Source: Armatimonadota bacterium (lineage in GTDB: Bacteria > Armatimonadota > UBA5829 > DTJY01). Taken from it: 64,000 bases of DNA. Of the stretch, positions 6,082-61,146 are shown in pieces. The DNA lies in the NCBI GenBank assembly GCA_035528905.1, contig DATKXU010000109.1:7279-71278 (forward strand). Reading direction: 5' to 3'. The notes under the pieces were generated by a model, which saw only the letters and a program-made list of their open reading frames with translations, had not been told where the DNA came from and made no database searches. The number at the start of each line of letters is the position of its first letter. The stretch's first letter is position 1. Position numbers and translations under genes: made by a program.

Positions 6082-6151
6082 AACATCCAACACCCGACGT
6101 CCAATCCAGGGGCGCAAACCTGAGACCTGGAACCTGGAACTTGAAACCTTG
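6082..6151. repeat. heptanucleotide tandem array, 10 units in phase (AACCTGR type at the 3' half)
   Basis: AACATCC AACACCC GACGTCC AATCCAG GGGCGCA AACCTGA GACCTGG AACCTGG AACTTGA AACCTTG. Confidence 0.85.
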
Positions 6152-6223
6152 CCAGCCACGTTACGTAAAACAGATTGGATGCCGCAGTCTCTATTTATCA
6201 GTGGAAACGGATGGTGACTTCCC

Positions 6224-7711
6224 ATGAAAAAGCGAACAAGCATCGGCATGCTCGTACCTGCAGTGGCTGTGTCGCTGGCCCTCACGGCGCTTCTCCAAGG
6301 ATGCGGCGGAGAGAGGACGCACCTCAGCGTCGTCAGCGGGACTATTGCCGACATCAATCGCAACCCGATCGTCGGAGCCAAAGTGTGGGTCGACGACTAC
6401 CACCAAACACAGTCTCTGAGCACCGGCACATACAGGCTGGAAGGCGTGGAGAGCGGCTGGCGAACCGTCTGGGCAAGCGCAGACATTAGTGGACAGACGT
6501 GGATCGGCAGCGCCGCGGCGGAAATACTGCGGGACCAGCCTACGATGAACATCCACATCACACTGGCGCCTGTGAGCGAAACCACCGAGATTCGCGGCTA
6601 CGTGGAGGACGACACCGGCCACCCGGTCGAGGGGGCACGGGTGCTGCTCACTACGCGCCTGCTGTCGCCTCCGGAGGACACCGACGCCTACGACGGCCCT
6701 TATGGGTCCATGGTAGCCGTCACGAACGGGAGCGGAGAGTATCGGCTGGAAAACGTGCCGGTCGGCTTGAAGGCGACAATAGCGGCATCGAAGGTCGGCT
6801 TCTACAACCAGGAAAAGGCGATTACCACCGCCAGCCCGAGCCAACTTGTGGACTTCACGCTGCAGGAATCGCACGTGGCATATCGCTTGGAGCCACCAGA
6901 CCTTGACGCAGTCGAATCGTACACCATGCCGGACACCATGACCAGGAGCGACGCCGATGCCTTCAAGGCGATCAGGGCGATTACGTCGCCGCGCTACTTC
7001 CAGGCCATCGCTAAGCAGAAGCAGGTGATGACTCGCGCAACGCCGCCCGGCTCGCTGATCGAGATAGACCTTTACTGGAACGCGCTGAATGCGAATGATT
7101 CCCAGGAGATCGCCGGCTACGGGATCTACCGCGGGACCGCTCCGCGCACGGGCGCGAAAGCCATTGATTTCGTGCGCGACCCCTATGCCAATTTCTACAG
7201 CGACACAGACATAGCGATTACGCCCTATGTGGATTATTACTATGCCGTGACTGCGGTAGATGTGGAGTTCCTCGACCAGTTCAACAACCCTGATCCCGGC
7301 GCAGAAAGCGAGAAGAGCAACTGGCTTGCAATACGCCCGCTCGGGCAGTTGAAGGCCGATTCTCCGGAGCAGGGAGCAGTGGTGTCGGAGAACCCCTTGT
7401 TCAACTGGTCAGCACTGGTAGGGGCGGCTTTCTACAAAGTGTTCGTGTACGATGAGTTTCCGACGCTGGCGGCTGATCCCTCCAGGACTTACACTAGCCC
7501 ACAGCCGCCTCCCGGTGTAGTAACTCTGCCCATCTGGCCGAGGACACTCGACTCGAACGAAAGCAGAGTCGAGGCGGGGACAACGTCAATTCACTACACG
7601 GGACCGGCGCTGACGCCGGGGAAGACTTACTACTGGCTGGTCATGGCGAAGGATGAAGAGGAATGGGCGGTCTCGTACAGCCAGCTCAGGTATTTCACGG
7701 TAGCGAGGTAA
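6224..7711 (+). CDS. secreted lipoprotein with carboxypeptidase-regulatory-like repeats
   Basis: Lipobox LLQGC at the N-terminus. Two segments (GTIADINRNPIVGAKVWVD..TGTYRLEGV and GYVEDDTGHPVEGARVLL..GEYRLENVPVG) resemble CarboxypepD_reg domains. Confidence 0.65.
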   Translation: MKKRTSIGMLVPAVAVSLALTALLQGCGGERTHLSVVSGTIADINRNPIVGAKVWVDDYHQTQSLSTGTYRLEGVESGWRTVWASADISGQTWIGSAAAEILRDQPTMNIHITLAPVSETTEIRGYVEDDTGHPVEGARVLLTTRLLSPPEDTDAYDGPYGSMVAVTNGSGEYRLENVPVGLKATIAASKVGFYNQEKAITTASPSQLVDFTLQESHVAYRLEPPDLDAVESYTMPDTMTRSDADAFKAIRAITSPRYFQAIAKQKQVMTRATPPGSLIEIDLYWNALNANDSQEIAGYGIYRGTAPRTGAKAIDFVRDPYANFYSDTDIAITPYVDYYYAVTAVDVEFLDQFNNPDPGAESEKSNWLAIRPLGQLKADSPEQGAVVSENPLFNWSALVGAAFYKVFVYDEFPTLAADPSRTYTSPQPPPGVVTLPIWPRTLDSNESRVEAGTTSIHYTGPALTPGKTYYWLVMAKDEEEWAVSYSQLRYFTVAR

Positions 7712-7720
7712 CATGCCGTT

Positions 7721-8260
7721 GTGAAACGATGGTTTCCCTGGATAACGGCTGCGGCAATAGCAGTCGGGTTGGTCTGGGCCTTTATCTACCTTGGCACGCG
7801 CGGCCCGAGGCTGGATGAGGATCATCTGGCCGGAGTGGCGATAAGGCTGAAAAACGCAAAGCTGGTCGGCCGGTCGGGTGGAAAGAAGGTGTGGGCATTC
7901 GAGGCCCGGACTATTGACGTGAGCAGAGACCGGCGAACGGCCACTTTCAAGGGCGTCACTCGCGGCTGCCTGCTGCAAGACGGCAAACAGATAGCGTCAC
8001 TCTCCGCCGGGAAGGTCATCTACAACACATTCACGCAGAATGTCGCAGTTCCGGGAAGCGCCGAAGTCGTCCTGACAGACGGCCCATCATTCAAAGTGAG
8101 GGACGCGTACTGGGATGCGCGCAAATCCAGGCTGTTCTGCCGGGGCGGAGTGGATGCCGCCTTGGCAGGCAGCACGCTCCACGGCGAGCGCATGACTGTG
8201 GACGTCGGGAAGAAGGAGCTGACGATCTACAAGGTGAATGGACAAATCAGACTCGAATAG
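7721..8260 (+). CDS. LptC-like membrane-anchored protein
   Basis: N-terminal TM followed by a beta-rich domain. Sits directly upstream of an OstA/LptA-like gene. Assignment rests on context and fold-type pattern only. Confidence 0.5.
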   Translation: MKRWFPWITAAAIAVGLVWAFIYLGTRGPRLDEDHLAGVAIRLKNAKLVGRSGGKKVWAFEARTIDVSRDRRTATFKGVTRGCLLQDGKQIASLSAGKVIYNTFTQNVAVPGSAEVVLTDGPSFKVRDAYWDARKSRLFCRGGVDAALAGSTLHGERMTVDVGKKELTIYKVNGQIRLE

Positions 8261-8279
8261 CCGGAGAGCAGCAACGGAC

Positions 8280-9089
8280 ATGAAAATGAATCAACGGGCT
8301 AAATGGAGAATCGGGTCAGCAATTGCGGCCACGATAGGCCTGGCGGTCGTGAGCGCGGTTCCGGCGGCGCAGCAAGGGACGCCTCCGAAGCCTGCCGAGC
8401 CCAAGTACACGGAGATCAAGTACTCCGCCGATATGACCTCGTATCGCTGGGACGGAGAGGACCGCATACTGGTGCTCAAGGGTAACGTCAAGTTCGTGCA
8501 GGGAGACACCGCTCTTCTCGCAGATAAGGTTGACTACCGCGAGAGCACAGACACGGCCATTGCGACCGGCAACCTGAAGATCTACGATGACCGGGACACG
8601 ATCACCGGCGACACATGCACCATGAACTTCGAGGAGAAGAAGGGAACGCTGGCAGGGAACGTTCGAATAGTGGCCAAGCCTAAGCCGAAGCCCCAGGGTT
8701 CATCGGACTCCAAGCCGAAATCGCTGAAATCCGAGTGGAAGGACGGCTTGGTCATCACCTGCGACAAGGTGGACTACTACTATAAGGAAAAGAAGGCGGT
8801 GATTCCCTCGCCGGTCACGATGGTGCAGAAGAGCAGGACGGTCACCGCTGATTCGGCGATATACCTCAGCAAAGAGGAGATCATTCAGCTAGTCGGCAGC
8901 GTCAAGGGACGCGACGAAAAGGACAGACATTCGTTCTCCGCGCCCAAGGTCACGATCTCCATCAAGGAGAACGATGAATGGATCACGGCCGAGAAGGCCA
9001 CCGGCTCTTTCTACGTGAAAGAGAAGGAAGAGGAGTCGAAGCCGGCAGAGAAGACGACTGAGCAGCCGGCAGAAAAGTCCGGCACGTAG
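8280..9089 (+). CDS. OstA/LptA-like periplasmic protein
   Basis: Signal peptide after the ATG at 8280. LKGNVKFVQGDTALLADKVDY...ATGNLKIYDDRDTITGD is typical of the OstA N-terminal domain. The 8238 start would overlap the previous gene. Confidence 0.65.
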   Translation: MKMNQRAKWRIGSAIAATIGLAVVSAVPAAQQGTPPKPAEPKYTEIKYSADMTSYRWDGEDRILVLKGNVKFVQGDTALLADKVDYRESTDTAIATGNLKIYDDRDTITGDTCTMNFEEKKGTLAGNVRIVAKPKPKPQGSSDSKPKSLKSEWKDGLVITCDKVDYYYKEKKAVIPSPVTMVQKSRTVTADSAIYLSKEEIIQLVGSVKGRDEKDRHSFSAPKVTISIKENDEWITAEKATGSFYVKEKEEESKPAEKTTEQPAEKSGT

Positions 9090-9225
9090 CGCACGAACGT
9101 ACAATATGCCCCACTCCGGAAACTCACCGCCGAAGGCCCTTGCTTCCGAGAGCCAAGATATTCGCAGGCTGTTAGGCGGCTGCTTGCACCAGTCCTCACC
9201 GGTTACTCAGCGATAGTTACCAGCT

Positions 9226-9434: not shown

Positions 9435-10547
9435 ATGCCGGAAATCAGCGAAGTCAACGCATATTCGCTGGAGCTGCCGCTCAGAGAGCCTTTCGGAACA
9501 GCAAAGGGCACCAAAACGACGTCGCCCGCGGTGATCGTCCACCTTGGGTTATCGAATGGCGTCTATGGCCTCGGCTCTGCGACTCCCGCCAAGTACGTCA
9601 CCGCCGAGGACACGGCTTCGGTCCTGTCAGCGATTGAGCTATGTGCGCCCGACCTCGTTGGTCTGGACGCAGCGGCCTACCTCCCCATTTTCGGAATGCT
9701 CGGTGAGGTGCTGCCACACGCACATTCCGCGCGCGCCGCGCTCGAGATAGCGGTCCTCGATGCCTTCTGCAAGCTCTACGACCTCCCGATGTGCAAGTTC
9801 CTCGGAGGCGCATTGCCCCAAGTGGAAACGGACATAACCATCCCGTTCGTGGGCTCAGAGGCCGCGCGTGAGCTTGCGCAACAGGCTGCCTCTCGCGGAT
9901 TCAAGCACCTCAAGATAAAGATCGGGAGCCACGACCCGGAGGACGATCTGGCACGAGTGCTCGGGGCGAGCGAAGGCGCGCCGCACTGCAGCATCAGGCT
10001 CGATGCAAACCAGGGGTTCACACCTACCGTCGCGGTAAGATTCGCAGGCAAGATTCAGGAGGCAGGCGTGAAGATCGACCTGTTTGAACAGCCGGTTGAC
10101 CGTAGGGACCTCGACGGGCTCCGCTATGTCACGCAGAACACATCCGTGCCGATCTTTGCCGACGAGAGCGCCGTGACGCCGTCCGATGTGCTGAAGCTGA
10201 TTGAGCTTGAGGCCGTGGACGGCATAAACGTGAAGCTGATGAAGTGCGGCTTGTCCGGCGCGCTGGATATCATTGCGATGTGCAAAGCCGCGCGCCAGGA
10301 ACTCATGCTGGGCTGCATGGTCGAGACTGGTATCGGGCTGGCTGCTGCTGTTCACCTCGCCTGCGGCACCGGCGCATTCAGCAGGATAGACCTGGACGCA
10401 CACATGCTGGTCTCCCCCGACAGCGGACTGTCCTCTGGAGGATTCACGCACAACGGCCCTGTCCTCATCGCCGATAGCACCGCGCCCGGCCACGGCAGCG
10501 CTCTTGCAACGACGCCTGAACTCGTACCATCCCAGCCTAGAACCTGA
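9435..10547 (+). CDS. dipeptide epimerase (L-Ala-D/L-Glu epimerase type), enolase superfamily
   Basis: KIKIG, RLDANQGF, LFEQP, FADES and KLMKCG motifs of the MR/MLE-family dipeptide epimerases. Confidence 0.8.
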   Translation: MPEISEVNAYSLELPLREPFGTAKGTKTTSPAVIVHLGLSNGVYGLGSATPAKYVTAEDTASVLSAIELCAPDLVGLDAAAYLPIFGMLGEVLPHAHSARAALEIAVLDAFCKLYDLPMCKFLGGALPQVETDITIPFVGSEAARELAQQAASRGFKHLKIKIGSHDPEDDLARVLGASEGAPHCSIRLDANQGFTPTVAVRFAGKIQEAGVKIDLFEQPVDRRDLDGLRYVTQNTSVPIFADESAVTPSDVLKLIELEAVDGINVKLMKCGLSGALDIIAMCKAARQELMLGCMVETGIGLAAAVHLACGTGAFSRIDLDAHMLVSPDSGLSSGGFTHNGPVLIADSTAPGHGSALATTPELVPSQPRT

Positions 10548-10575
10548 AACTTGAAACTTGACACCTGAAACCCTT
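10541..10575. repeat. heptanucleotide tandem array, 5 units (AACYTGA)
   Basis: AACCTGA AACTTGA AACTTGA CACCTGA AACCCTT. The first unit contains the epimerase stop codon. Confidence 0.85.
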
Positions 10576-10670: not shown

Positions 10671-10700
10671 TTGACAGAGGGATTTCGCATCCTGTATACT
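10671..10700 (+). promoter_or_regulatory. sigma70-type promoter, TTGACA-18-TATACT
   Basis: TTGACA at 10671-10676 and TATACT at 10695-10700. Implies a leader of about 150 nt before murA. Confidence 0.5.
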
Positions 10701-12329: not shown

Positions 12330-13616
12330 ATGGATACCGCGAAATCCTCAGAGTTGTTCGAAGAGGCTCAACGCTACATTCCGGGCGGCGTGAACAGCCC
12401 TGTGCGGGCATTCAAGGCCGTCGGAGGCGGTCCGCTTTTCATAGATCGAGGCAGGGGATCCCACATCTGGGATGCGGACGGCAACAAGTTCATTGATTAC
12501 GTGGGATCCTGGGGACCGCTGATCCTGGGACACGCGCATCCGCTCGTCGTGCGGGCGATCGAGAAGGCGGCCGCACGTGGGACGAGCTTCGGTGCGACCA
12601 CCGAGGCGGAGATCGAGCTTGCGAAGATGATAGTTGACGCGGTGGCGTCGGTGGAGATGGTGCGCCTCGTCAGCTCCGGCACGGAAGCGGTGATGAGCGC
12701 CATTCGCCTGGCGCGCGGGTACACCGGCCGCGACAAGATCGTTAAGTTCGAGGGCGGCTACCACGGCCACAGCGACGCCCTGCTTGCAAAGGCAGGATCC
12801 GGCGTGGCGACGTTCGGAATCCCGGACAGCGCGGGCGTCCCGGCAACGATGACTGCAGATACCCTGGTGCTCCCTTACAACGACATAGATGCCGTCCGCA
12901 CGCTTTTCAAGGCCATGGGGCCGGAGATCGCCTGCGTGGTCATCGAGCCGGTCGCGGGCAACATGGGCGTTGTGATCCCAAAGCCCGGCTACCTCGCCGA
13001 TCTGCGGGAGCTGACCCACAAATATGGGATCGTACTGATCTTCGACGAGGTAATCACCGGCTTCCGCCTCTCTTATGGAGGAGCGCAGAAGCTCTACGGC
13101 GTCATCCCGGACATGACGACGCTGGGGAAGATCATCGGCGGGGGTCTTCCCTTGGGCGCTTACGGCGGCAGGTGCGAGATCATGGAGCAGGTGGCTCCCG
13201 TCGGCCCCGTCTACCAGGCCGGGACACTCTCCGGAAATCCGGTTGCCGTAGCAGCCGGAATCGAGACCCTGCGCATCCTCCGCGATCGAAATCCGTATGC
13301 CGGGCTCGAGGCAAAGACAGCGAGGCTCGGAGATGCGCTGGCGTCAGCAGCCGAGACCAGCGGGATTGATCTGGAGGTCAACCAGATCGGCTCGATGATG
13401 ACGGCCTTCTTCACGCGGGAGGCGGTTGACGATTACGCTACCGCGAAGACCTCGGACACGCGGAAATACGCAGCGTTCTTCCGGGCGATGCTGGAACAGG
13501 GAATCTATCTGGCGCCCAGCCAGTTTGAAGCGGCATTCGTATCAACGGCGCATACTGACGAGGACATTTACCACACGGTTGAGGCGGCAGAAAAAGCGCT
13601 GGCGCTAATAGTATGA
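12330..13616 (+). CDS. hemL: glutamate-1-semialdehyde 2,1-aminomutase
   Basis: [37 protein letters not shown] and FDEVITGFR are diagnostic HemL motifs. Confidence 0.95.
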
Positions 13617-16588
13617 GATTTAGCTTACCCGGAGGAACAACAGTGAAGACTCGCGCAGTCAAGGCATGTATTCTGGCACTTGTGGCATTTGTAGGCGCTA
13701 CCTGCGCCGAAGAATTCGCCATTGCCCGAGACCCCGATCCGCGCTCGCAGGTATTCACGAAAGACGCGGTCCGCCCGGAGCCCACGATCGAGAGCATATC
13801 TCTCGCCCCAACGATTCGGCTCGTGCGGCAAGGCTCGAAGCTGATGCAGGTTGTCGAGCTGACGGTGAAACACAGCCCGAGTCCACAGCCTCTTACAGCC
13901 ACGGTAACCGTGGGCGGGAAGTCCAGGCAAGTCGCGCTGCATCCTGACCCGCCAGGCGACGGAAAATCCGAGCTAACGGTCGCTGAGGTAACAAAGCCCA
14001 CGGTGGTAGAGGTCAGCGTAGGCTCAGGCGGGAACAAGCAGACCGCCGCTTGTGAAATCCGGCCCCAGAGACACTGGAGGGTGTACGTGCAGCCGAGCTC
14101 CCACGTTGATATCGGCTATACAGATCTTCAAGAGCGGGTGATCGCAAGGCACAACGAAAACATGTCACTGGCTCTGGATCTGTGCAAGAAACACCCCGGC
14201 TTCAAGTGGAACACGGAGGTCGCCTGGGTGGAGGACAATTACTTATCGCTCGCGCCGGCAGAGCGCAAGTCCGAGTTTATAAAACACGCTGAGAAGGGCC
14301 TGATCGGCTGCCAGGCTGTCTATGGAAACATGCTCACTGGAATCCTCTCGCACGAAGAGATCATACGGAGCCTCTATTTCGCCCATTCGATGTCGAAGAT
14401 GTACGGCATTCCATTCGACATCGCGATGAGCAGCGATGTTCCGACCCAGGTATGGACTCTGCCCACGGTGCTGGCTGGCAGCGGGATCAAGTATTTCAGC
14501 GCCGGCCTGAACATGTCACGTGGAGGCTCCTTCGATCGCCTGTTCGACAAATCGCCTTTCTACTGGGAGGGGCCTGATGGAAGCCGCGTGCTGGCCTGGC
14601 TCTTACGCGGATATGCATACGCCTACAGGCTTCATCTGTTGTCCAGCGCGGACAAGGCAGAATCCCATATTGAGAAGTTCCTGCAGGGCTACGAGCGCGA
14701 CGATTACCCCTACGATGCCGTACTGGCCTTTGGTGGATTCAGCGACAATCAGCCTCTCGACCCCAGGCTGGCATCCGTGGCCGACGAGTGGAACAGGCGG
14801 TATGCTTATCCGAAAATAATCCTCTGCCGCGGGCCTGAATTCTTCAACTACATAGAGTCCAAGTTCAGAGACAAAACACCAACGATCCGTGGCGACGGTG
14901 GCGCTTACTGGGAGGACGGCGCAGGCTCCTCCGCCCTGGAGACGGCGCTCGTCCGCCGTGCAAAGGAGGACCTGGCGGCTGCCGAGAAACTTCATTCCTT
15001 AACATCATGCCTCGGCGGCGCTGTATATCCCAAAGCAGACATCAACCAGGCATGGAAGGACGCCATCCTGTACGACGAGCATACATGGGGTGCGTGGTGC
15101 AGCATAGACCAGCCGAATTCCGCGCAGACAATCCGCCAGTGGAGGTATAAGAAAGCGTTTGCCGACAACGCAAGCTGTCGGACGGCCCACATAATGGAGC
15201 AGGGCCTCGATAGCCTCGCGAAGATCGTAAAGCTCAAAGAGCCCTCGGTCGTCGTATTCAATCCACTCAGTTGGCCTGTCAGCGGCACGGTCAGGGCTGA
15301 AACGGCGGACGGCAGGCAGATCGAATTCTGGGCGGACGATGTCCCGCCGGTCGGGTACAAAGCATACGCACTGCACAAGCTGCCGGCCGGGCGCACTCCT
15401 CTCCTAACCTTAGGAGAAAGCAGCGACGTGCGCCAGCTCAACCCGAAATCCGAAATCCGTCCCGCCCAAGCGGGATCCCGCCAAAGGCGGGAAAATCCGC
15501 AATCCGAAATCCGCAATCCGAAATTGGAAAACCGCTTCTACCGCCTGGAGTTCGACCGAACCACCGGCGCGATCAAGAGCCTCTACGACAAGGAACTCAA
15601 GCGCGAGCTGGTAGATTCCACGGCGCCCTATGGGATCAACCAGTACATCTATATCAAAGGTCAGGGCGATGGCGCCAGGGACGTTACCTGGAGCGAGAGC
15701 GCTCCGGCTGTAACCTTCGCTGAAGAAAGCCGGCCATGCGCCTCGGTTATGCGCATCCGGGGTTCGGCATACAACACGCCGGAATGGACGACGGAAGTGG
15801 TTCTGTATGGCAATTGCAAGCGCATAGACTTCGAGAACGTTATCAACAAGCAACAAACTACCGAAAAGGAAGCCGGGTACTTTGCATTCCCCTTCTCCCT
15901 GAATAAACCGCAGTTTTACGTGGGGCTGCCCAATGGCGTGATGCGACCGGACAAGGACATGCTCGATGGAGCGTGCATGCAGTGGTACTGCGCTCAGGAC
16001 TTCGTCGCCATCGCGGACGACAAGGGCGCCTTAGTCTGGACAGCCGTGGACAGTCCGCTTATCACGCTCGGCGACATCAACCGCGAGACGTTCAAATCGC
16101 CGCTCCCAATCGAGAACGGCCACCTTTACGCCTACGTCTTCAACAACTACTGGTACACGAACTACAAAGCCGTCCAGGGCGGCGAGTTGAAGTTCCGATT
16201 CTCGCTTACCAGTATACCGAAGTACGATCCAGTCGCCGCCGCCCGTTTCGGCCAGTCGGTGCGCAATCCGCTCCTGTCCAGAGTTTGCGAGCCTTCAGGT
16301 AGACCGTCAACTACCAGCCATGAAGCATCGGCTTCCCTGTGTTCGGTCACACCCTCGAACATCGTCATTCAAGCAGTGAAGAAGGCCGAGTCAGGAGATG
16401 GGCTGATCATCCGGCTGAGAGAGATCTCCGGCAAGAGAACTAAGGCCACCCTTCGCTTCCCCACGAGCCTCAGAGAGGGATGGTCGTGCAGCCTCGTCGA
16501 GGATCCACACACGAAGCTAAGTGCATCCGCCGGGCGCGTGGGCTTGACCGTGCCTGCCAACGGACTTGCCACCATTCTGGTGAGGTAG
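13613..16588 (+). CDS. secreted GH38-like alpha-mannosidase family protein
   Basis: Signal peptide. [10 protein letters not shown] metal-site-like motif near the N-terminal domain. C-terminal [30 protein letters not shown] and NNYWYTNY are typical of GH38 C-terminal domains. The ATG overlaps the hemL stop (ATGA). Confidence 0.75.
15440..15535. repeat. composite repeat inside the GH38-like CDS: heptamer array, two GC hairpins, heptamer array (96 nt, in frame)
   Basis: AACCCGA AATCCGA AATCCGT, then CCCGC-CCAA-GCGGG and TCCCGCC-AAA-GGCGGGA, then AATCCGC AATCCGA AATCCGC AATCCGA AATTGGA AAACCGC. Confidence 0.85.
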
Positions 16589-31047: not shown

Positions 31048-31085
31048 TACTGTTTCCAAAACCACTACTCCTCTTTCTGTTATAT

Positions 31086-31166: not shown

Positions 31167-31183
31167 GGATGCCCTTTTCGAAC

Positions 31184-40319: not shown

Positions 40320-40805
40320 TCATGCCCAGCGAAGGACTTCGGAGAGCCGCTTCTTGGTGGGGCTCCGCTCCTCGGCCGGATAGCCGATGGATACGAGCGA
40401 GACAAGCTTGTAATTCGGCGGCATGCCGAGCATCTCGACGATCTGCTGAGCGTAGCCCTTCTTGTCGCCGGCGACCCAGCACGAGCCAAGGCCGTGCGCC
40501 CTGGCCGCGTTCAGGATGTTCTGAGTCGCCGCACAGCCATCCTCGAGGTAGTATTTCGTGTCCTCGCATAAGACGGCTATGCAGACCGGCGCCTGTGCGA
40601 TGAACTTGCCGTGATCCGTGGTGTCCGCAATCTTCTTTCGCATCATGGCGTCCTGCGCGACCACGAACCCCCATGGCTGGATGTTGATGGCCGTCGCTCC
40701 GAGCCTGCCGCAGTCAACGATGTCCTCAATGACCTCCTTAGGCACCGGCTTGTCCTGATACGCCCTGATGCTCCGCCGAGTCTTCATGCACTCAATAGCG
40801 TCCAT
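40320..40805 (-). CDS. nitroreductase-family protein
   Basis: MDAIECMKTRRSIRAYQDKPVPKEVIEDI and INIQPWGFVV motifs. The ATG at 40805 is preferred over 40829. Confidence 0.9.
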   Translation of the reverse strand: MDAIECMKTRRSIRAYQDKPVPKEVIEDIVDCGRLGATAINIQPWGFVVAQDAMMRKKIADTTDHGKFIAQAPVCIAVLCEDTKYYLEDGCAATQNILNAARAHGLGSCWVAGDKKGYAQQIVEMLGMPPNYKLVSLVSIGYPAEERSPTKKRLSEVLRWA

Positions 40806-40923
40806 GTTTGCATCCCTCCGTGACTGCATTTGATGCTGCCGGAATGGGGTTCTTTCCGGCAGCGGTATCCATGCGCGACAGCCCTGCTGCGGGAAAGCAA
40901 TTCATTCCCGCAGCATCAGACAT

Positions 40924-44033: not shown

Positions 44034-44085
44034 ACCCGGAGTCTGAAATGACTTCTAATCCGAGATGTCAGAAAGGAGACACAGA

Positions 44086-44865: not shown

Positions 44866-44875
44866 AGAGATCGCG

Positions 44876-44931
44876 AATTGCAGATTGCAAATTCCAGAAG
44901 CGGGAGGCGGGTTCGATCTGCAATCTGCGAT
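44876..44931. repeat. heptanucleotide array, 8 units in phase, with a GCGGGA-type core
   Basis: AATTGCA GATTGCA AATTCCA GAAGCGG GAGGCGG GTTCGAT CTGCAAT CTGCGAT. The outer units are mutually inverted. Confidence 0.8.
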
Positions 44932-45201
44932 GTACCGGCACAAGTACCGGTTTTTTGTTGGAAGCTCTAGCAGACCCTAAGAGGCGCTTGGCCGCGTGCC
45001 ATAATAAGTAGTAGCTCCAGGAAACGCGGCAAGCAGACCTCAGCGAAGGCCGTTGCAGAGGCGGTCCTGGTTTCAAAAAGGGGCGTCGGCATCCCTTAAC
45101 AGTTTTTCAGCCGGCGCTCCTTTTTTCGTGCCAGCCCAGGACAGCCCCGGCGCAGCAGACCTGAAGCGCCATCGCCAATAACGTCGCAGAGATGAATGAG
45201 A

Positions 45202-45956: not shown

Positions 45957-47459
45957 TCAGAGCCAGTCTATGCCCCAGCGGTTGCGCGGGTGGCAGGATA
46001 TCTTTATCGGCTCGGCTAAGAGCGGGGTTTCCAGGACCATCCAGAGGGGGCGGACGCCGGTTGTGTTAATGGTGATCTCGGCGCCGATCTGCACCAGGAG
46101 ACCCCGTTTTTCTTCTATTGGCGAGGCCTGCCAGTTCTCTTCTACGCGGTCGGCTATGGCGAGCACCTGCTTCATAGAAATCCGCGGAGACGGCGGCGGC
46201 ACCGGATCCGCTTTGGCGTCAAGCTCGGCGATGAGGTTCAGGAACTCAGCCTCGGTGATGTGGCCCTGGACATAGAGGTGAACCGCGCGATCGCGCATGG
46301 CGGACAGATCTCTCGCACGCGGAGGACGCATCGGTGCGGGCGGTAGGATGCCCTGTGCGACCTGGGCTTTCGTTTGACTAAAGAAGTTTTGGGCTGCGCG
46401 GGCGGCCATAGCGTCCACATAGCGGTCGCTCACATGGTGGCTATCGCAGGCGCCATAGAGTCGCTTCATTTTGCACACCCATTGGAGAAATCTCACCCCG
46501 TCGCTGTTTCCCCTGACTGGAACAAGCAAGGACCCGCAGAGCGAGCAAGAAAGCAAGCCTCCGTAGGCGAGAAGGGTTTGTGGCCGGCGCGGAGAATACT
46601 GGCGGTGCTCCAGGAGGGCGGCAGCCTGGTTTACGAGTTCCAGAGGGACGACTTCGGGCACGAGGTCGGGGGCATCAATGGTGCGGCCGGCCCAGAAGAG
46701 CTGGCGGCGGTAGAAGGGGCTCTTGAGGAGACGGAGGACGGTGCAGGGGATCCACAGGCTGCCCTTGGGACTCGGAACGCCCTGGCGGTTAAGCTCATAG
46801 GCGACTCCGGTAGCATTTCCGCCCGAACGGACATAGGCATCGAACAGCATCCGGACGTCGTCGGCTCGGTCGGTGATATTGAAGGCCTTCGTGGCAGGGT
46901 CGTATTGCATTCCGAGCGGGAGATTACCTCCGGGCCACCTGCCGGCGAGGAACTGGGCGAGGTGGTGCTCGTAGATTCGCTGGCCGGTGAGCCTGCGTTC
47001 AAACTTGCGGACGTGCATCATAAGGCCATGGAGCAACTCGCCGCTGGGCGTGGAGAGATCAATCGGGTCCTTGATGGAGATAAGCTGGCAATTATGCTTT
47101 GCGAGGAAGGCGATACCGGAGTACTCATCCTGGGGATCACGGAAGAGGCGGTCCATGCGCAGGACGATAAGGCCATCGAATGGGCGATCTTTGGCACTGA
47201 CGGCGCGGAGGAGCTCCGACCCAGCGGGCCGCTTCTCGACGGGGATGGCGGCGGAGACGCCGAAATCGCGGTAATCGCCGACGAGCTGGTAGTTCTGAGC
47301 GGTGCATTCCTGCTTAATGAGCGAGAGTTGGGTATCCAGGGAATCGTCCTGCTGGTCGGTGCTGCATCGGAGATAAGCGGTGACTTTCATTGGGGCGGCC
47401 TGCGCCGATGGCAGGGGCGGCGTGGGCTGCCGGGTCGTGTGATTGGACGTATTGACCAA
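45957..47459 (-). CDS. large serine recombinase (phage integrase)
   Basis: Resolvase-type N-terminus VTAYLRCSTDQQ, a recombinase domain and a Cys-rich zinc-ribbon region (CSLCGS...CKMKRLYGAC). About 480-500 aa. Confidence 0.92.
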   Translation of the reverse strand: MVNTSNHTTRQPTPPLPSAQAAPMKVTAYLRCSTDQQDDSLDTQLSLIKQECTAQNYQLVGDYRDFGVSAAIPVEKRPAGSELLRAVSAKDRPFDGLIVLRMDRLFRDPQDEYSGIAFLAKHNCQLISIKDPIDLSTPSGELLHGLMMHVRKFERRLTGQRIYEHHLAQFLAGRWPGGNLPLGMQYDPATKAFNITDRADDVRMLFDAYVRSGGNATGVAYELNRQGVPSPKGSLWIPCTVLRLLKSPFYRRQLFWAGRTIDAPDLVPEVVPLELVNQAAALLEHRQYSPRRPQTLLAYGGLLSCSLCGSLLVPVRGNSDGVRFLQWVCKMKRLYGACDSHHVSDRYVDAMAARAAQNFFSQTKAQVAQGILPPAPMRPPRARDLSAMRDRAVHLYVQGHITEAEFLNLIAELDAKADPVPPPSPRISMKQVLAIADRVEENWQASPIEEKRGLLVQIGAEITINTTGVRPLWMVLETPLLAEPIKISCHPRNRWGIDWL

Positions 47460-47488: not shown

Positions 47489-47746
47489 TCATTCCGGTGG
47501 ACGGCAGCGGGAGCACGGGCGGTACTGCTCTCGGGCGTCTTTGAGAGATATGGGATGCTTGCTGTACTGGAGCGAGCTGCACGAGGCGCGGTGGTAGCAC
47601 TCGCCGGTATCGGTGATGTAGACGGTGACAGCCTGGGGAGCGTTGAGTGTTGAGTGTTGAGTGTGGCGAGCAAGGATGAGCCAGGCGGAGCCGGCCAGGA
47701 GGACGACGGCCAGGATGGGGATGAGAAACTTGGTGCGGTGTCGCAT
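47489..47746 (-). CDS. small membrane-anchored protein with an Ada-like Cys4 zinc-binding motif
   Basis: TM FLIPILAVVLLAGSAWLIL followed by GECYHRASCSSL...YRPCSRCRP (CxxxxC...CxxC, the pattern of the Ada N-terminal Zn site). Confidence 0.6.
   Translation of the reverse strand: MRHRTKFLIPILAVVLLAGSAWLILARHTQHSTLNAPQAVTVYITDTGECYHRASCSSLQYSKHPISLKDAREQYRPCSRCRPPE
47642..47662. repeat. (GTTGAGT)x3 heptamer array inside the 47489-47746 CDS
   Basis: Three perfect units. On the coding strand they encode HTQHSTLN. Confidence 0.9.
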
Positions 47747-50853: not shown

Positions 50854-51315
50854 ATGGAAGTGGAGATACAAATCGAGTGCAAGATGCTGTATTTTCTGGC
50901 GGGGGCGCAGGAATGCGTTCTCGACTTCGAGATCGAGGACGAGGAGAAGCGGCCCCAGCTTCTCAGGATACTGGCTCCGCTGCAAGGAAAGTACGTCCCG
51001 ATATGCGTGAGGGCGAGCGGTTCCGATGGGGATCGGATATTCCTCGGGACGAAGTTATCCGCAGCGGCTCCGGTGGGAGACAGCATCCTGCAGGTGAGCT
51101 TTACACTCCCCGGCAACAAAGCCGGGCCAGGTACGCTGGTCCGGAGGGAAACGATCGGGCGAGCGGCGGCGATCGCGGGGCTCGATGTGAAGCTCTGTAT
51201 GCAGTGTCCGGAGATTGGGACCACGCTAAGACAAGGAAAGGGGATGGAAGCAGATGGGAAGGAAGAAAGCAGGGAAGCAGTCAGCGGACAGCGCTCAGCG
51301 GACAGCAGAGAGTAG
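50854..51315 (+). CDS. phage hypothetical protein
   Basis: 153-aa ORF after GAGGAAAGGG. The 3' end reads into the heptamer array and overlaps the ParB-like start, so the true end is uncertain. Confidence 0.5.
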   Translation: MEVEIQIECKMLYFLAGAQECVLDFEIEDEEKRPQLLRILAPLQGKYVPICVRASGSDGDRIFLGTKLSAAAPVGDSILQVSFTLPGNKAGPGTLVRRETIGRAAAIAGLDVKLCMQCPEIGTTLRQGKGMEADGKEESREAVSGQRSADSRE

Positions 51316-53227
51316 TCAGCAGCCAGCAGACAGCAGCCAGCAGTCAGCAGCCAGCTACGCGGAGATTCCGATCGGGAAGATCGTAGTTAGCGGGGACAAT
51401 CCCAGGAAGCATTTCGACGAGGAGAAGCTGCTGGAACTGGCGGAGAGCATCCGGGCGCACGGGGTGATCGAGCCGATCGTTGTAAGGCCGGTGAGGTTGT
51501 CGGCTGGCGACCGGTTTCAATCCGACGGTCAGGAATACGTGGTGGACGCTCCTGGGGGCGCTGAGGTCCCGAACATCACCTACAAGAGGGAGAAGGCTCT
51601 ACAGCCCGCCTGGGAGACTCACGAGGTATTCGCAGAGAAGCACAGCTTTGACTTGAAAGGCGGGGGTCTATACCGCTACCACCTTATCGTCGGAGAGCGG
51701 CGGCTACGGGCCGCGGTGATCGCCGGGTTGACCTCGGTGCCGGCAATCGTGAAGGAATGCGACGACAGGAAGTCTAGCGAGCTAAGGCTCATCGAGAACT
51801 TGCAGCGGCAGGACCTGGATGTGGTCGAGGAAGCGACGGGCTACCAGGCGTTGATCGCCCTGGGGTACAGCCAGTCGGAGATCGGGGCGAAGGTTGGGCG
51901 AGCACAGCCGACGATTGCGAACAGCATCCGGCTGCTGAAACTGCCGGAGGACGTCAAGGAACGGGTAAGCACTGGCGAGATCTCCGGCAGCCACGGGCGC
52001 GCGCTGGTGCCGTACGCGGAGATCAACCCGGCGGCGGCGTCGGTGTTGGCGTCCGCCGCAGCGGACCACCGCCAATTGACGTCGAAGCAACTGGAACAGA
52101 TGGACTACTCTGTGGCCTGCATGCTCGGAGAGAACCTCTGCGTCCAGATGCGGACGTATGACGCGCCGTTCGTCGAGAAGACGTGTCAGGGCAAATGTGA
52201 TTGCTACAGAAAGGGCGACTGGTGCCTCAAGCCTGAGTGTTACAAGGCTAAGCTGGCCGTTGCCGAGCAGGCTCACCGGAAGCGCGTCGAGGCACTGATC
52301 GCGAAGGCGACGGGTGAGGGAGTGGAGGTGGTCGACCTGTCCAAGCTCAGAAGCGAGAACTACGAAACGCTGCGCGAGGGCCATGTCCCGGACGGCTGCC
52401 GCGAGGATTGCGAACACCGGCGGTTGGGTTCACATCAAAAGGGCGGCGAGCCTTTCTCGGTTTGCGTCAACATGCACTGCTATCGGAAGCTACGGAAGGC
52501 CACGATCAAGGCCAAGAACGCCGCTCGGAAGCAAGAACTGGACCAGCTCCTGAGCCGGTGCATCGAGGGCCTGGACGCGCACCAGAGGTTCGACCGCCTG
52601 GAGGCGGTGGTATGCTGGGAGGCGATTCGAGCGGCGAACAAGGACGTCGTCAAGGCGGCGATCGCCCGGCTCGACCTGCCGCTCGACGTGGAGCTGCTCA
52701 AGGGATTCGGCAAGTTGACGGAGAAGCTGGACGCCCTGCGCTCGCTGCCGGGCACGACCGCGATGTACCTTGCGGCTGAGATTCTTCTGCGCGGGGAGCA
52801 CAAGCAGGCGCTCCCGTCGGGGGAGTATTGCGCCGGAGCGACTCCGGTAGGGATGCAGTGGTATCTCGAGATCGAGGAGACTTCCGGCTCGGCTGAAGGC
52901 GCGGCGGAGGAAGAGACTGTCGAGCAGGCGGCCGAGCCGGCGTCCGAAGACGGCGCTGTTTTCGTCGTTTGCGTGGCCTGCGGGTCGGAACTCCGCCTAG
53001 CCGAGGATTCTGAGAAGGCGGAGGTTGGGGACCCATTCGGGACCGCGTATTGCGCCAACGAGGAGTGCGAGACCCCGGTCATGGTGCCGATCGGGGCGAC
53101 AGTTCAGATCCCAGGGGAACGGTGGACATGGACGGAGATCGGCTGGCAGGGGGTACTGGGCCTCGAAGCCGAACCGCCGATAGACGCCGATGGGAGTGGA
53201 GAAGAGAGCGATGTCGCCGGCGACTAG
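51254..53227 (+). CDS. ParB/Srx-like nuclease-domain protein with a Cys-rich C-terminal extension
   Basis: IPIGKIVVSGDNPRKHFDEEKLLELAESIRAHGVIEPIVVRP and HLIVGERRLRAAVIAGLTSVPAIV are ParB N-terminal boxes. An HTH-like GRAQPTIANSIRLLKL follows, then several CxxC clusters downstream. Confidence 0.8.
   Translation: MGRKKAGKQSADSAQRTAESSQQPADSSQQSAASYAEIPIGKIVVSGDNPRKHFDEEKLLELAESIRAHGVIEPIVVRPVRLSAGDRFQSDGQEYVVDAPGGAEVPNITYKREKALQPAWETHEVFAEKHSFDLKGGGLYRYHLIVGERRLRAAVIAGLTSVPAIVKECDDRKSSELRLIENLQRQDLDVVEEATGYQALIALGYSQSEIGAKVGRAQPTIANSIRLLKLPEDVKERVSTGEISGSHGRALVPYAEINPAAASVLASAAADHRQLTSKQLEQMDYSVACMLGENLCVQMRTYDAPFVEKTCQGKCDCYRKGDWCLKPECYKAKLAVAEQAHRKRVEALIAKATGEGVEVVDLSKLRSENYETLREGHVPDGCREDCEHRRLGSHQKGGEPFSVCVNMHCYRKLRKATIKAKNAARKQELDQLLSRCIEGLDAHQRFDRLEAVVCWEAIRAANKDVVKAAIARLDLPLDVELLKGFGKLTEKLDALRSLPGTTAMYLAAEILLRGEHKQALPSGEYCAGATPVGMQWYLEIEETSGSAEGAAEEETVEQAAEPASEDGAVFVVCVACGSELRLAEDSEKAEVGDPFGTAYCANEECETPVMVPIGATVQIPGERWTWTEIGWQGVLGLEAEPPIDADGSGEESDVAGD
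51278..51354. repeat. heptanucleotide tandem array, 11 units (NNNNCAG), inside coding sequence
   Basis: CAGTCAG CGGACAG CGCTCAG CGGACAG CAGAGAG TAGTCAG CAGCCAG CAGACAG CAGCCAG CAGTCAG CAGCCAG. Confidence 0.9.
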
Positions 53228-58683: not shown

Positions 58684-58829
58684 GTGTGAATGTTGTGTAT
58701 ATTTGTGAATGTCCTGCACTGTTACTATACGCAATGCGCGCGCGGCGCGTGCAATACGCACACACGCGAATTTGGTAATACGTATATAGCCGGGGGCGGA
58801 AACATTCACAACATGCACAACATTCACAC
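58684..58829. repeat. 146-bp composite palindrome with four GTGAATGT boxes (2 direct + 2 inverted)
   Basis: Outer IR GTGTGAATGTTGTG (58684-58697) / CACAACATTCACAC (58816-58829). Inner IR TTGTGAATGT (58703-58712) / ACATTCACAA (58802-58811). The centre holds TATACG...CGTATA and GC-rich GCGCGCGCGGCGCG. Confidence 0.9.
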
Positions 58830-59339: not shown

Positions 59340-60197
59340 ATGGAGGATGTTTTGAGTGGATTTCGCGCGGAATTGGAGAGGCAGGATCTGAGTCCGGCGA
59401 CGGTCCGGGGTTATATCAACGATGTGGAGTTGTTCGCTCGGTGGTACACGGATGCCTACGGCGAGCAGTTCGATCCGGCGCGGATCGTTCAGCGGGAGGT
59501 CTCGGAATATCGGGCGTGGATGCAGCAGAAGCCCGCTGCGGCTGAGACGATCAACAGGCGGCTAACCTCGATCAGAAAATTCTTCGATTGGCTGGGCGGA
59601 AACAATCCGGCTGCCGCCGTGAAGGGGGTTGCGATTGTTGATCCGGGCGTGCAGGCGCTGTCCACGCCGGAACTGCGGCGGCTGATGCGGGAGGTCCACG
59701 TCCACGGCGTAGTCCGGGATATCGCGATCCTGGAGGTCCTGTGCGGGACGGCGATCCGGGTCGGCGAGCTGGTGCAGCTCCGGGTCGGGGATGTGGAGAT
59801 TTCGGAGCGGAGGGGCGCGGTCAAGGTTCGGAGCGGCAAGGGCCGGACGAGCCGGGAAATCCCGCTGAACGTGGACGTGCGGAAGGCATTGGCGGCATGG
59901 ATAGCAGCCAGCGGCCAGTCGGAGTGGCTGTTTACGGGGCAGCGAGGGCGGCTGACGGCCGTCGGAGTGTGGCGGGTCGTGCGGAAGTACGGCAAGTTCG
60001 CCGGGATCCCGAATCTGCGAGTGCATCAGCTCCGACACACGGTATTGACGCGGCTTGTGCGGGAGTGCGGCGCCGACCTGGCGACGGTGGCGAGGATTTC
60101 GGGGCATCGGGATATCCGGACACTGACGCGGTACATCGAGCCGACGCAGGACGACCTGGCGCAGGCGGTGGAGAAGCTGGCGCTGGGAGGGGAGTGA
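59340..60197 (+). CDS. tyrosine recombinase, XerC/XerD-like
   Basis: SAM-like N-terminal domain (ATVRGYINDVELFARW). Catalytic-domain motifs GTAIRVGEL, VHQLRHTVLTRL and GHRDIRTLTRY. Confidence 0.9.
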   Translation: MEDVLSGFRAELERQDLSPATVRGYINDVELFARWYTDAYGEQFDPARIVQREVSEYRAWMQQKPAAAETINRRLTSIRKFFDWLGGNNPAAAVKGVAIVDPGVQALSTPELRRLMREVHVHGVVRDIAILEVLCGTAIRVGELVQLRVGDVEISERRGAVKVRSGKGRTSREIPLNVDVRKALAAWIAASGQSEWLFTGQRGRLTAVGVWRVVRKYGKFAGIPNLRVHQLRHTVLTRLVRECGADLATVARISGHRDIRTLTRYIEPTQDDLAQAVEKLALGGE

Positions 60198-60517: not shown

Positions 60518-60735
60518 GTGCAACCGGGACAGGCAAACCGGGGTCATGTTGCAGGTGTGGCGAAGATGGGAACAGGCGGCTTATAGGACTTACTTTCGTC
60601 TTCCTCTGTGACGCCTGCTGTGCAAAGGCCAAACACGCCTACTGGCTTTTGCGCAGTGCCGAGAATGTCTCGCGACGGCCATCGGGCTATGCTCTTAGGC
60701 GTTGGGAACAGAAGCATCGGACCAGCCAGGAGTGA
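60514..60735 (+). CDS. phage hypothetical small Cys-rich protein
   Basis: 73 aa, CCRCG...CDACC zinc-ribbon-like. ATGA coupling to the upstream ORF. Confidence 0.4.
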   Translation: MSATGTGKPGSCCRCGEDGNRRLIGLTFVFLCDACCAKAKHAYWLLRSAENVSRRPSGYALRRWEQKHRTSQE

Positions 60736-60748
60736 GGGAGGCGCGGGG

Positions 60749-61027
60749 ATGGCGGAGACGATGGGCGATCGGATCAGGAAGGCGCGGATCAAGTTGAAGA
60801 TGAAGCAGGAGGATGCGGCGGGAGAGGCCGATCTCTCCAGGGTGACCTGGTCGCACCTGGAGAACGACGAGGTCGACGACCCTCGACTCAGTACTCTGCA
60901 AAGAGTGGCGCACGTGCTAAAGATGTCGCTGGAGGCACTGATCGGCGAAAAAAATCTGCTCCCGGGGCGAAAATGTAAAGGCGCCTTTATTGACAAGGTG
61001 GTGGAAAAGCGTAAACTGGTATCGTGA
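60749..61027 (+). CDS. XRE-family HTH transcriptional regulator
   Basis: ATG 7 nt after GAGGGAGG. IRKARIKLKMKQEDAAGEADLSRVTWSHLEN...STLQRVAHVLKMSLEALI. Confidence 0.8.
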   Translation: MAETMGDRIRKARIKLKMKQEDAAGEADLSRVTWSHLENDEVDDPRLSTLQRVAHVLKMSLEALIGEKNLLPGRKCKGAFIDKVVEKRKLVS

Positions 61028-61028
61028 C

Positions 61029-61048
61029 GAAGCACTGTATTGTGCTTC
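61029..61048 (+). terminator. hairpin GAAGCAC-TGTATT-GTGCTTC just after the HTH gene stop
   Basis: 7-bp perfect stem with a weak T-tract (ACTTTC). Confidence 0.45.
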
Positions 61049-61111
61049 ACTTTCACCTCCTATCCGTCAGAGGGGACGGTCGGTGTGGTGGCCGTCCCCG
61101 GAATTACAGAC

Positions 61112-61146
61112 AGTCGGTAGTGGATAGTCGGTAGTCGGTAGTGGGA
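61112..61146. repeat. heptanucleotide tandem array, 5 units
   Basis: AGTCGGT AGTGGAT AGTCGGT AGTCGGT AGTGGGA. Confidence 0.85.

Follow-up and report, generated by a model that had tools for sequence, protein, structure and literature searches.

Short heptanucleotide tandem arrays in an uncultured Armatimonadota genome fragment and its prophage

We describe here short tandem arrays with a 7-nt period in a 64-kb stretch of DNA (contig DATKXU010000109.1; hereafter, the window, i.e., the whole stretch that was analysed). The host is an uncultured member of the Armatimonadota, as indicated by its nearest genomes and the gene content of the window, and the window carries a prophage from ~45.2 kb to 64 kb. 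The arrays occur at ten loci, seven in host DNA and three in the prophage (47638, 51276 and 61112), and are far more frequent than in shuffled sequence. We interpret them as heptanucleotide long simple-sequence repeats (LSSRs) of the type known from cyanobacteria as short tandemly repeated repetitive (STRR) sequences, being short (3-11 units), imperfect, head-to-tail and mostly intergenic arrays, and propose for them an origin by strand slippage coupled to selection acting as a filter, an explanation that we think probable (roughly 60%).

Period-7 excess and its reproducibility

Tandem Repeats Finder (TRF; minimum score of 30) returned 39 rows for the window, 11 of which have a period of 7 nt (at 6116, 10541, 15443, 15493, 31185, 31207, 38881, 44877, 47638, 51276 and 61112) and cover nine of the ten loci that a preliminary description of this DNA had listed. 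An independent scan, which required at least three units with no more than two mismatches per 14 lag-7 comparisons, found 10 period-7 arrays vs. 0.17 +/- 0.45 in 30 dinucleotide-preserving shuffles of the window, i.e., a ~60-fold excess. The excess is specific to period 7: the corresponding counts in the window vs. the shuffles were 0 vs. 0.03 for period 8, 1 vs. 0 for period 9 and 6 vs. 2.3 for period 6, with fewer arrays than in the shuffles for periods 4-5 and zero or nearly so for periods 8-15.

All array sequences quoted in the preliminary description were found at their coordinates, and about eight of the ten loci are solid while two are marginal. The period is not strict, as had been stated, but shows unit-to-unit identities of 61-100% (lag-7 identity per locus of 0.61-1.00). 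For the ten units proposed at 6082-6151, only the second half (6116-6151) was borne out; the first five units are weak, with a lag-7 match of 0.43 that places them in only the top 4% of windows. The runs at 40244-40264 and 40292-40312 are marginal, with two to three units each, lag-7 matches of 0.64 and 0.71 and no TRF row.

The arrays are not an assembly artefact because a contig from the ENA (k141_668952; L082 below) matches window positions 3643-26588 with four mismatches and no gaps (99.98% identity), none of the mismatches being inside the arrays, and because related arrays exist at orthologous places in other samples. Three arrays are reproduced base for base in L082.

Turnover, placement and spread of the arrays

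Comparisons among relatives show that arrays lengthen, shorten and are rearranged in steps of whole units (7 nt or multiples of it), and four sets of observations together demonstrate this mode of turnover. First, the GH38 array lies in a loop with Pfam matches on either side, which is hypervariable across all orthologues in the protein alignment. The window protein reads NPKSEIR / NPQSEIR / NPKLENR in this loop (three heptamers correspond to seven residues), while the loop of L081, a JGI contig of ~85% DNA identity, has only CAATCCG AGGCCGG AAATCCG AAATTGG AAAACCG. Relative to L081, the window carries an extra in-frame block of 54 nt, which takes in the array at 15440-15460 and consists of more AATCCGA units and two tandem copies of a 16-nt hairpin, whereas the array at 15493-15535 is partly conserved at the same loop in L081 and in L321 (L319 and L321 are syntenic relatives whose GH38 protein is ~62% identical to that of the window). 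Second, the spacer between the EPSP synthase and aminotransferase genes holds ten AACYTGR units ahead of the aminotransferase start in L319, degenerate remnants of such units in L321, five units in the opposite orientation directly past the EPSP synthase stop in L081, and one unit only (GTTTCAAGG) in the window; the array at 10541 of the window is also missing from the orthologous spacer of L319 and L321. Third, a pair of Armatimonadota genomes with 92-93% identity has ~20 YAACCGA units at an orthologous position (L004:4545-4685 and L005:4556-4686); between almost identical flanks, the two versions of this array are distinguished by an indel of exactly 7 nt and by a different order of T/C variants. 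Fourth, similarity within arrays falls with distance, the lag-14 match being lower than the lag-7 match in 422 of 509 arrays, with a 14-nt super-period in another 73. Together, these data show that single arrays are short-lived at the scale of 85-93% nucleotide identity, and that unit families outlast them, persisting across the clade and recurring at dispersed loci.

The GH38 loop deserves a separate observation. The segment between the middle and C-terminal GH38 domains (window 15395-15535; ~6900-7010 in L319; also L320 and L321) is an in-frame mosaic of small GC-rich hairpins and heptamers in all five clade members (e.g., TCTCCTAACCTTAGGAGA and TCCCGCCAAAGGCGGGA in the window, CCCTCTCCCTCGAGGGAGAGGG in L319 and CCCCCCTCCGTTTCGGGGGGAGG in L320), four of which have fold z-scores of -2.2 to -4.5; the loop is short in orthologues that are more distant. 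The mosaic resembles repeat DNA of the "intergenic type" placed inside a gene and recalls the Rickettsia palindromic elements. That the 16-nt hairpin is itself a dispersed element was considered and rejected: the window has no other copy of it (the number of matches is that expected by chance), and the fetched loci described below show no enrichment of hairpins that loosely resemble it. Close to the 10541 array, a near-consensus promoter (TTGACA-18-TATACT, 10671-10700) upstream of the EPSP synthase gene is kept in L319 and L321, while the heptamer array 100 nt upstream of this promoter is not.

Seven of the ten window loci are intergenic. In 236 further loci, for which genes were called as the greedy longest ORFs (open reading frames), 59% of the arrays lie outside ORFs while ORFs cover 85% of the sequence, i.e., there is ~8-fold intergenic enrichment; arrays lie a median of 33 nt from the upstream stop and of 42 nt from the downstream start, and convergent and divergent spacers hold 50 and 46 arrays, respectively. 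The AACYTGR family is oriented sense to the nearest ORF in 114 cases and antisense in 121. An apparent sense bias in co-directional spacers (75:43) was rejected as an artefact of the ORF caller, which absorbs stop-free arrays, and is offset by the in-ORF calls (39:78); the in-ORF bias arises because a TGA is present in all frames of AACYTGA. That neither strand is preferred overall speaks against a function in the sense transcript; the arrays are a property of duplex DNA rather than of a coding frame or of one transcript strand.

Consistent with the preliminary description, three of the window arrays lie within ORFs. These ORFs all have homology support and encode GH38, a small membrane protein and a ParB-like protein. 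The three arrays are in frame and occupy tolerant segments, namely the hypervariable GH38 loop, the linker of the membrane protein and the N-terminal tail of the ParB-like protein, and the earlier argument from the period stands: a period of 7 rules out a protein-level origin, the 7-aa repeats being only a by-product. For annotation, this means that heptamer arrays can sit in frame inside genes and give rise to low-complexity loops and tails.

The unit differs between many loci, yet a few families recur in the window: AACYTGR at 6116, 10541 and 38881 (the last being, as had been noted, an opposite-strand copy), ATTGCAG at 40244 and 44876, and an ATCC core at 15440/15494, 31184 and 40292. The 6116 and 38881 arrays have a 17-mer in common and the 40244 run shares an 11-mer with the 44876 array. 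Overall, five pairs of arrays share an exact word of at least 10 nt vs. 0.17 for random segments, one of the five being the split GH38 array; this test replaced one based on the recurrence of consensus units (one mismatch, any rotation or strand), which was not significant (four pairs vs. 1.65 expected, P = 0.08). Each of the three prophage arrays has its own unit, shared with none of the host families, and viral contigs are generally rich in heptamers (below); thus, the phage may carry heptamer arrays in its own right, and the host-wide process that had been deduced from the presence of arrays in both chromosome and prophage is weakly founded.

Array density was compared across 80 EPSP synthase loci from representative genomes. 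The window (10 arrays in 64 kb; 156/Mb) exceeds ~25-fold the 69 loci of other phyla (7 arrays in 1.11 Mb; 6.3/Mb), and densities are also high in the Armatimonadota loci L001-L009 (12 arrays in 174 kb; 69/Mb), mostly due to L002, L004 and L005, and in two Atribacterota loci (12 arrays in 42.5 kb; 282/Mb). The closest representative genome (OY760504.1, locus L001; syntenic, 74% EPSP synthase identity) has no heptamer array in 21 kb, and thus the trait is patchy even inside the phylum. The two Atribacterota loci, L010 (MNYY01000100.1) and L018 (JAUWHZ010000027.1), have 32-34% GC, carry 8 and 4 arrays per 21 kb, respectively, and share an AGTATAT family, in addition to CAGAAGT, ACGAGAT and ACTCGAT units; we found no publication that links Atribacterota with heptamer repeats.

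Three exact tandem AACYTGR units were found in at least 120 metagenome stretches and in 116 viral stretches, and the loci that carry them range from 30 to 70% GC. These metagenome and viral loci hold 149 and 250 further period-7 arrays of other units, respectively, compared with 15 and 33 arrays of period 8, and the fetched loci contain in total 679 arrays with 219 distinct units. In viral contigs, AATCCGM x3 occurs in at least 120 stretches while composition-matched permuted units occur in 17, 22 and 95 stretches, with the 95 coming mostly from one sample among the matches listed. We found no published description of either the AACYTGR or the AATCCGM family. Some phage contigs are saturated with arrays (IMG/VR L317, 13.9 kb; also L304, L280, L540 and L347), with 12-20 arrays per ~13 kb and a maximum of 20 in 13.9 kb, involving several related units on both strands and often beside terminator-like hairpins; the main unit of L304, AATCCGC, is that of the GH38 array of the window.

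Within the fetched loci, arrays also occur as inverted pairs that form long hairpins, the arms of which are exact in-register reverse complements, including their Y/R variants, with minimum free energies of -44 to -94 kcal/mol (e.g., L089:2688-2769, L217:3944-4057, L125:245-378 and L092:1022-1089, among loci L083-L575). These pairs have a preferred polarity: 25 AACYTGR pairs read 5'-(YCARGTT)n..(AACYTGR)n-3' vs. 3 reversed, AATCCGM pairs are split 10 vs. 1, and among 82 non-redundant pairs of all families the polarity agrees within the family in 34 of the 38 cases beyond the first member. The 5' arm has more G than C in 55 pairs vs. 18 (n = 73, p = 1.7e-5), or in 27 vs. 9 when counted per family. 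A G-rich arm coming first is not a trait of any hairpin, given that 717 generic perfect hairpins in the same sequences gave 270:262, and a rule of the G+T-rich arm first was likewise rejected as it is true of the two seeded families but not of the others (26:18), the form that generalises being G>C in the 5' arm. The two clearer pairs of the window, at 44870 and 40257, seem to obey the rule based on inspection of their arms. The spacers within the pairs are 9-121 nt long, unrelated between contigs and often palindromic themselves. A role of the hairpin pairs as intrinsic terminators was discarded: the examined examples lack a U-tract, and terminator-like sites are no commoner in the window than in its shuffles.

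Relation to known repeat systems and proposed origin of the arrays

STRR heptanucleotide repeats were first described in Calothrix and Anabaena, and the cyanobacterial units STRR1-3 are CCCCAGT, TTGGTCA and CAACAGT. The excess of 7-nt repeats has been known since 1990 for cyanobacteria and since 2007 for many phyla, and has never been explained. The likeness to the cyanobacterial STRRs that had been drawn for the window is apt, both being head-to-tail 7-nt units of several families per genome, dispersed, mostly intergenic and variable in copy number or position between relatives. In contrast, the window lineage is Armatimonadota with 60% GC, its units are AACYTGR, AATCCGM and ATTGCAG, among others, its arrays are short, and they are known here from one window; an assignment to STRR in the strict sense is thus rejected, as the host is not a cyanobacterium and the units differ from STRR1-3. 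The broader LSSR/STRR-like class describes what we found: at least three tandem units, a period-7 excess, recurring families, an intergenic majority and whole-unit variation between relatives.

Nor are such repeats confined to heterocystous cyanobacteria, to which the preliminary description had tied them; they are established there, but an excess of heptanucleotide repeats has also been reported in Burkholderia, Xanthomonas, Actinobacteria, Beggiatoaceae, Bacteroidetes and Geobacter (PMC4679880, PMC4692102, PMC2700814). According to the passages on it in two of these papers, the survey by Mrazek, Guo and Shah (2007) found heptanucleotides to be the commonest class of long simple-sequence repeats in many bacteria, with a patchy phylogeny, and proposed slippage (PMC4679880, PMC4692102). 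As far as those passages describe the LSSRs with 5-11 nt units, the likeness to our arrays extends to the heptamer excess, the patchy distribution, the tendency of units with lengths not divisible by three to be intergenic and the proposed slippage origin. The 2007 survey predates the Armatimonadota and Atribacterota genomes and, to our knowledge, covered neither phage contigs nor inverted-pair polarity.

Other documented heptamers are alike in part. The GGGAATC repeats of Xanthomonas and the GGGGAYT repeats of Nostoc (PMC4692102) also place one family at many intergenic loci, with ~4 units, variation between close relatives and occasional inverted pairs, and their GGAT/ATCC core resembles the AATCCGM, NATCCAA and YATCCAG units of the window; unlike the latter, which lack G-runs, they can form G-quadruplexes. 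The TAACTGA repeats of Beggiatoaceae, cyanobacteria and Bacteroidetes (PMC4679880) and the GGACCGG and MTYCTGA arrays of Geobacter metallireducens, both intergenic and intragenic (PMC2700814), are similarly cases of a single heptamer family shared between unrelated phyla, with 2-6 units near gene starts or ends and sometimes in genes, with a TGA in the unit as in AACYTGA; however, the units differ, and the preference of TAACTGA for sites upstream of start codons was not seen in the window. TTTTGAA heptamers are found in Nostoc promoters.

Hence, only the lineage is new here; the heptamer repeat class is already known in several phyla and this is not a new kind of element. Consistent with the earlier statement that no description existed for the lineage, we found no publication tying Armatimonadota to heptamer repeats, so that an uncultured member of the phylum and its prophage, as well as the Atribacterota loci and many viral contigs, are additions to the known carriers. 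The finding by itself is incremental and of moderate interest; beyond it, the data provide comparative snapshots of how arrays change (whole-unit indels, transient instances and persistent families).

Under the proposed mechanism, strand slippage or unequal exchange at replication or repair would generate the arrays, and loops of seven bases may escape mismatch repair, being too large for recognition. Selection would then act as a filter, such that arrays survive in spacers and in the disordered parts of proteins (loops, linkers and tails), to which three heptamers contribute seven residues and no stop, and some arrays would be duplicated in inverted orientation to become the stems of long hairpins. 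Slippage had been among the generating processes suggested initially, and the comparative data back it. We rank slippage plus filter well above the alternatives that invoke a heptad-reading protein, a mobile element or a function of the RNA because arrays do not keep their positions, come in very diverse units and, taken singly, favour neither strand.

Several points weigh against this interpretation. The arrays shared by the window and L082 show no difference in copy number, although the two possibly come from the same population, and the positional statistics rest on crude gene calls. Slippage alone predicts no preference for 7 over 6 or 8, nor does it predict the same units at dispersed loci and in organisms of 30-70% GC, the viral frequencies of AACYTGR (116) and AATCCGM (at least 120) relative to their permuted counterparts (17, 22 and 95), or, in its simple form, the fixed polarity of the inverted pairs. 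Slippage plus filter leaves four facts unexplained, namely that 7 is preferred, that units recur across distant genomes and phages, that arrays are typically of a narrow size range and that inverted pairs are polar; these facts keep alive the alternatives of a reader, of a mobile element and of an RNA-level role for the hairpin form.

The best-surviving of these, which we nonetheless regard as unlikely, is that the arrays would be cooperative binding sites in duplex DNA for small dimeric proteins, one 7-bp heptad each, serving as operators or as centromere-like or nucleoid-organising sites; every unit family would then need a reader of its own. Ribbon-helix-helix (RHH) proteins such as omega are the only well-understood readers of contiguous heptads. 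Omega of pSM19035 occupies runs of 7-10 contiguous heptads (5'-WATCACW-3'), whether direct or inverted, with one dimer per 7 bp, and is fully active only if four or more heptads are contiguous (PMC9499535). The typical array of 4-5 units would suit such a requirement, as would the contiguity and the direct and inverted arrangements of the heptads, the recurrence and clade-wide conservation of unit families, and the neutrality of the arrays with respect to transcription, which is what recognition of the duplex would lead one to expect; a polar protein-DNA complex would also impose a fixed polarity on inverted pairs. The TATCACT unit in the 31184 mosaic fits WATCACW, which may well be chance. 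On the other hand, the 219 units in 679 arrays would call for very many readers (a single sequence-specific binding protein, as initially suggested, cannot explain so many different units), array positions are not conserved even at 85% identity, and arrays also lie within coding regions. pSM19035 has one unit, few sites per replicon, abutting inverted heptads and an adjacent gene for the cognate protein, none of which was found for the window arrays; the arms of the array pairs are 9-121 nt apart, and no RHH protein or other obvious heptad reader was detected among the ten prophage ORFs searched against Pfam, the other small ORFs not having been searched. An omega-type heptad operator or centromere was, for these reasons (many units, distant arms, no RHH domain in the prophage ORFs searched), rejected as a classification of the arrays.

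Somewhat more doubtful is the possibility that the arrays are tiny non-autonomous mobile elements, either of the REPIN or miniature inverted-repeat transposable element (MITE) type or similar to the small dispersed repeats of Nostoc, spread by a transposase or through an RNA intermediate that is encoded elsewhere, with slippage only modifying the copies. Small dispersed repeats are said to lie embedded in Nostoc heptamer arrays (Elhai, in 2008), and the hairpin nested inside the GH38 array would be in keeping with this idea. REP/BIME and REPIN sequences have unique arms of ~20-25 nt and are mobilised by the RAYT transposase (PMC3116915); like them, the inverted pairs are dispersed intergenic hairpins of two inverted copies with a fixed polarity, and this constancy (34/38, 25:3 and 10:1) is also that of terminal inverted repeats. 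Families that persist while their instances are short-lived, and that are found in widely differing genomes as well as in viral contigs, would equally be expected of a mobile element. Unlike in REPINs, however, the arms are heptamer arrays and the spacers are unrelated in sequence and length, though mostly from different organisms. The window loci showed neither conserved flanks nor target-site duplications nor full-length copies, protein-family searches detected no RAYT/IS200-like gene in the window, and orthologous arrays differ by single units rather than by the presence or absence of a fixed element.

At about the same low level of probability, the arrays could be, instead of passive products of slippage, the footprint of a dedicated polar process that is specific to sequence families and common to distant bacteria and phages, carried out either by a heptad-reading protein or by an enzyme adding heptamers to the 3' end of one strand. 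If true, such a process would explain the recurrence of units at 30-70% GC, the size of 4-5 units and the family-specific polarity, in which the G-rich strand runs 5'->3' toward the centre as in telomere tracts fused head to head. If they hold genome-wide, the several-fold higher frequency of AACYTGR and AATCCGM in viral contigs compared with two of the three permuted units, and a polarity rule that ordinary hairpins lack, may provide handles on the old question of the 7-nt excess; the polarity rule and the unit families that cross phyla are the parts that we consider worth pursuing.

Less probable still, in our view, are elements of untranslated regions that act at the RNA level, whether as sites for single-strand binders with a footprint of ~7 nt (e.g., cold-shock proteins), as stop modules for all frames (NNNNTGA) or as hairpin stabilisers or terminators. 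The arrays at 10541, 38881, 44868 and 40292 begin 0-8 nt past a stop, in line with the short median distance to the upstream stop in the larger set, AACYTGA offers a TGA in all three frames within 21 nt, and CspB is described in a passage of PMC4679880 as binding heptamer repeats with one protein per heptamer. The very stable folding of the inverted pairs is also compatible with such a role, and the rule of the G-rich arm first could reflect co-transcriptional folding. Against it, there is no net strand bias (in the window, AACYTGR is sense at 10541 but antisense at 38881), the examined hairpin pairs lack a U-tract, Rfam covariance models gave 0 matches at the gathering score across the whole window, and array positions are not conserved between relatives.

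Phase-variation switches, in which in-ORF or promoter-proximal arrays would toggle genes by gain or loss of 7 nt as in the phage-encoded NeuO or in HMW1A of Haemophilus, appear very improbable even though heptanucleotide switches are documented and the 11-unit array at the 5' end of the ParB-like coding sequence (51276-51355) takes the classical position of one, given that the imperfection of the arrays (this one has only 76% matches) strongly lowers slippage rates, that all three in-ORF arrays are in frame and in tolerant segments, that the GH38 array, the in-ORF array common to both assemblies, has the same length in the window and in L082, and that most arrays are not placed to switch any gene.

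Array loci of the window, its prophage and minor observations

Table 1. Array loci of the window, with gene context taken from a gene map guided by GC content at third codon positions (GC3).
Positions	Array	Context	Basis
6116-6151	AAACCTG x4.9 (AACYTGR family)	73 nt upstream of gene 6224-7711(+)	TRF, scan, lag-7 match 0.72
10541-10575	AACCTGA AACTTGA AACTTGA CACCTGA (AACYTGR)	overlaps stop of MR/MLE-type epimerase ORF 9435-10547	TRF, scan
15440-15460	AACCCGA AATCCGA AATCCGT	left part of in-frame mosaic in GH38 ORF 13613-16588; encodes NPKSEIR	TRF, scan, Pfam
15460-15492	two tandem copies of 16-nt GC-rich hairpin (TCCCGCCCAAGCGGGA / TCCCGCCAAAGGCGGGA)	in frame between two AATCCGM arrays	TRF period 16 x2.0, fold
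15493-15535	(AAATCCG CAATCCG)x2, then AAATTGG AAAACCG	in frame, GH38 loop	TRF period 7 and period 14 (100%)
31184-31253	mosaic of ATCCAAT x3.4, TCACTCG x2.6 and ACGAGT x4 (period 6)	between co-directional genes 30142-31197(-) and 31282-32160(-)	TRF, scan
38881-38915	GTTTCAA GTTTCAA GTTCCAG GTTTCAG GTTCCAG (AACYTGR, other strand)	begins 2 nt past stop of ORF 35820-38879(+)	TRF, scan
40244-40312	weak runs ACTGCAA ATTGCAG ATTCAGG and CATCCAG TATCCAG AATCGCG	8 nt from stop of gene 40320-40829(-)	lag-7 match, no TRF row
44868-44931	inverted pair of ATTGCAG arrays	begins 3 nt past stop of SPFH/Band-7 gene 44065-44865(+)	TRF, fold
47638-47664	GAGTGTT x3.9 (ACTCAAC on - strand)	in frame, prophage ORF 47489-47746(-)	TRF, scan
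51276-51355	AGCAGAC x11.4 (NNNNCAG), higher-order periods of 14, 21 and 28 nt	residues 8-34 of prophage ParB-like protein (51254-53227)	TRF, 76% matches
61112-61146	AGTCGGT AGTGGAT AGTCGGT AGTCGGT AGTGGGA	prophage co-directional spacer, from HTH repressor-like gene 60608-61027 to gene 61203-61865	TRF, scan

Some loci in Table 1 have further structure. The first unit of the 10541 array carries the stop codon of the epimerase, as had been proposed, the TGA of AACCTGA being the end of the ORF. In the 31184 mosaic, the TCACTCG and ACGAGT parts are roughly inverted, with arms at 31209-31221 and 31223-31235 that are 77% complementary, while the 40244-40312 runs act as an inverted pair, although a degenerate one, that encloses the hairpin GCCGGATGCCGGC (arms 40257-40275 and 40291-40309, 79% complementary). 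The pair at 44868 has arms at 44870-44892 and 44916-44931 with two pairing registers that are 7 nt apart; after it comes a weak stem that resembles a terminator, with T6, at 44934-44957. The 47638 array encodes HTQHSTLN, the linker that joins a transmembrane helix to a conserved C-terminal domain in a membrane protein of 85 aa (PHROG 14556 matches residues 28-82), and the ParB-like ORF has no alternative in-frame start downstream of its array.

The products of the window genes include DUF5693, GH38, GH10, DUF2961 and CarboxypepD_reg domains, and homologues of the GH38 protein are nearly all from Armatimonadota metagenome-assembled genomes. An exact-protein look-up of the EPSP synthase for further assemblies returned no record, one with the GH38 protein was successful, and no tRNA or tmRNA was found in the window. 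The prophage encodes a serine recombinase, an HNH endonuclease, the ParB-like protein, a primase, a tyrosine integrase, a helix-turn-helix (HTH) repressor and the small and large terminase subunits; relatives of the primase were sought in IMG/VR in order to see whether related phages share the arrays, and none was confirmed. Both a large serine recombinase (45957-47459(-)) and a tyrosine integrase (59340-60197(+)) are encoded in this region, which from ~46 kb onwards has a strongly positive GC skew (0.15-0.30) and nearly all of its genes on the + strand.

Finally, the ~800 nt at 5430-6223 that precede gene 6224-7711 have as their sole ORF one of 197 aa with no family match (called at 1802-2395 in L082), and the 3' end of this stretch contains the weakly periodic 6082-6115 and the 6116 array. 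Two repeats of other periods lie in the prophage: a 15-nt unit x2.5 (GCCAGGAGGACGACG) at 47680-47715, in the small ORF that also carries the GTTGAGT array, and a 9-nt unit x3.1 (AACATTCAC) at 58801-58828.

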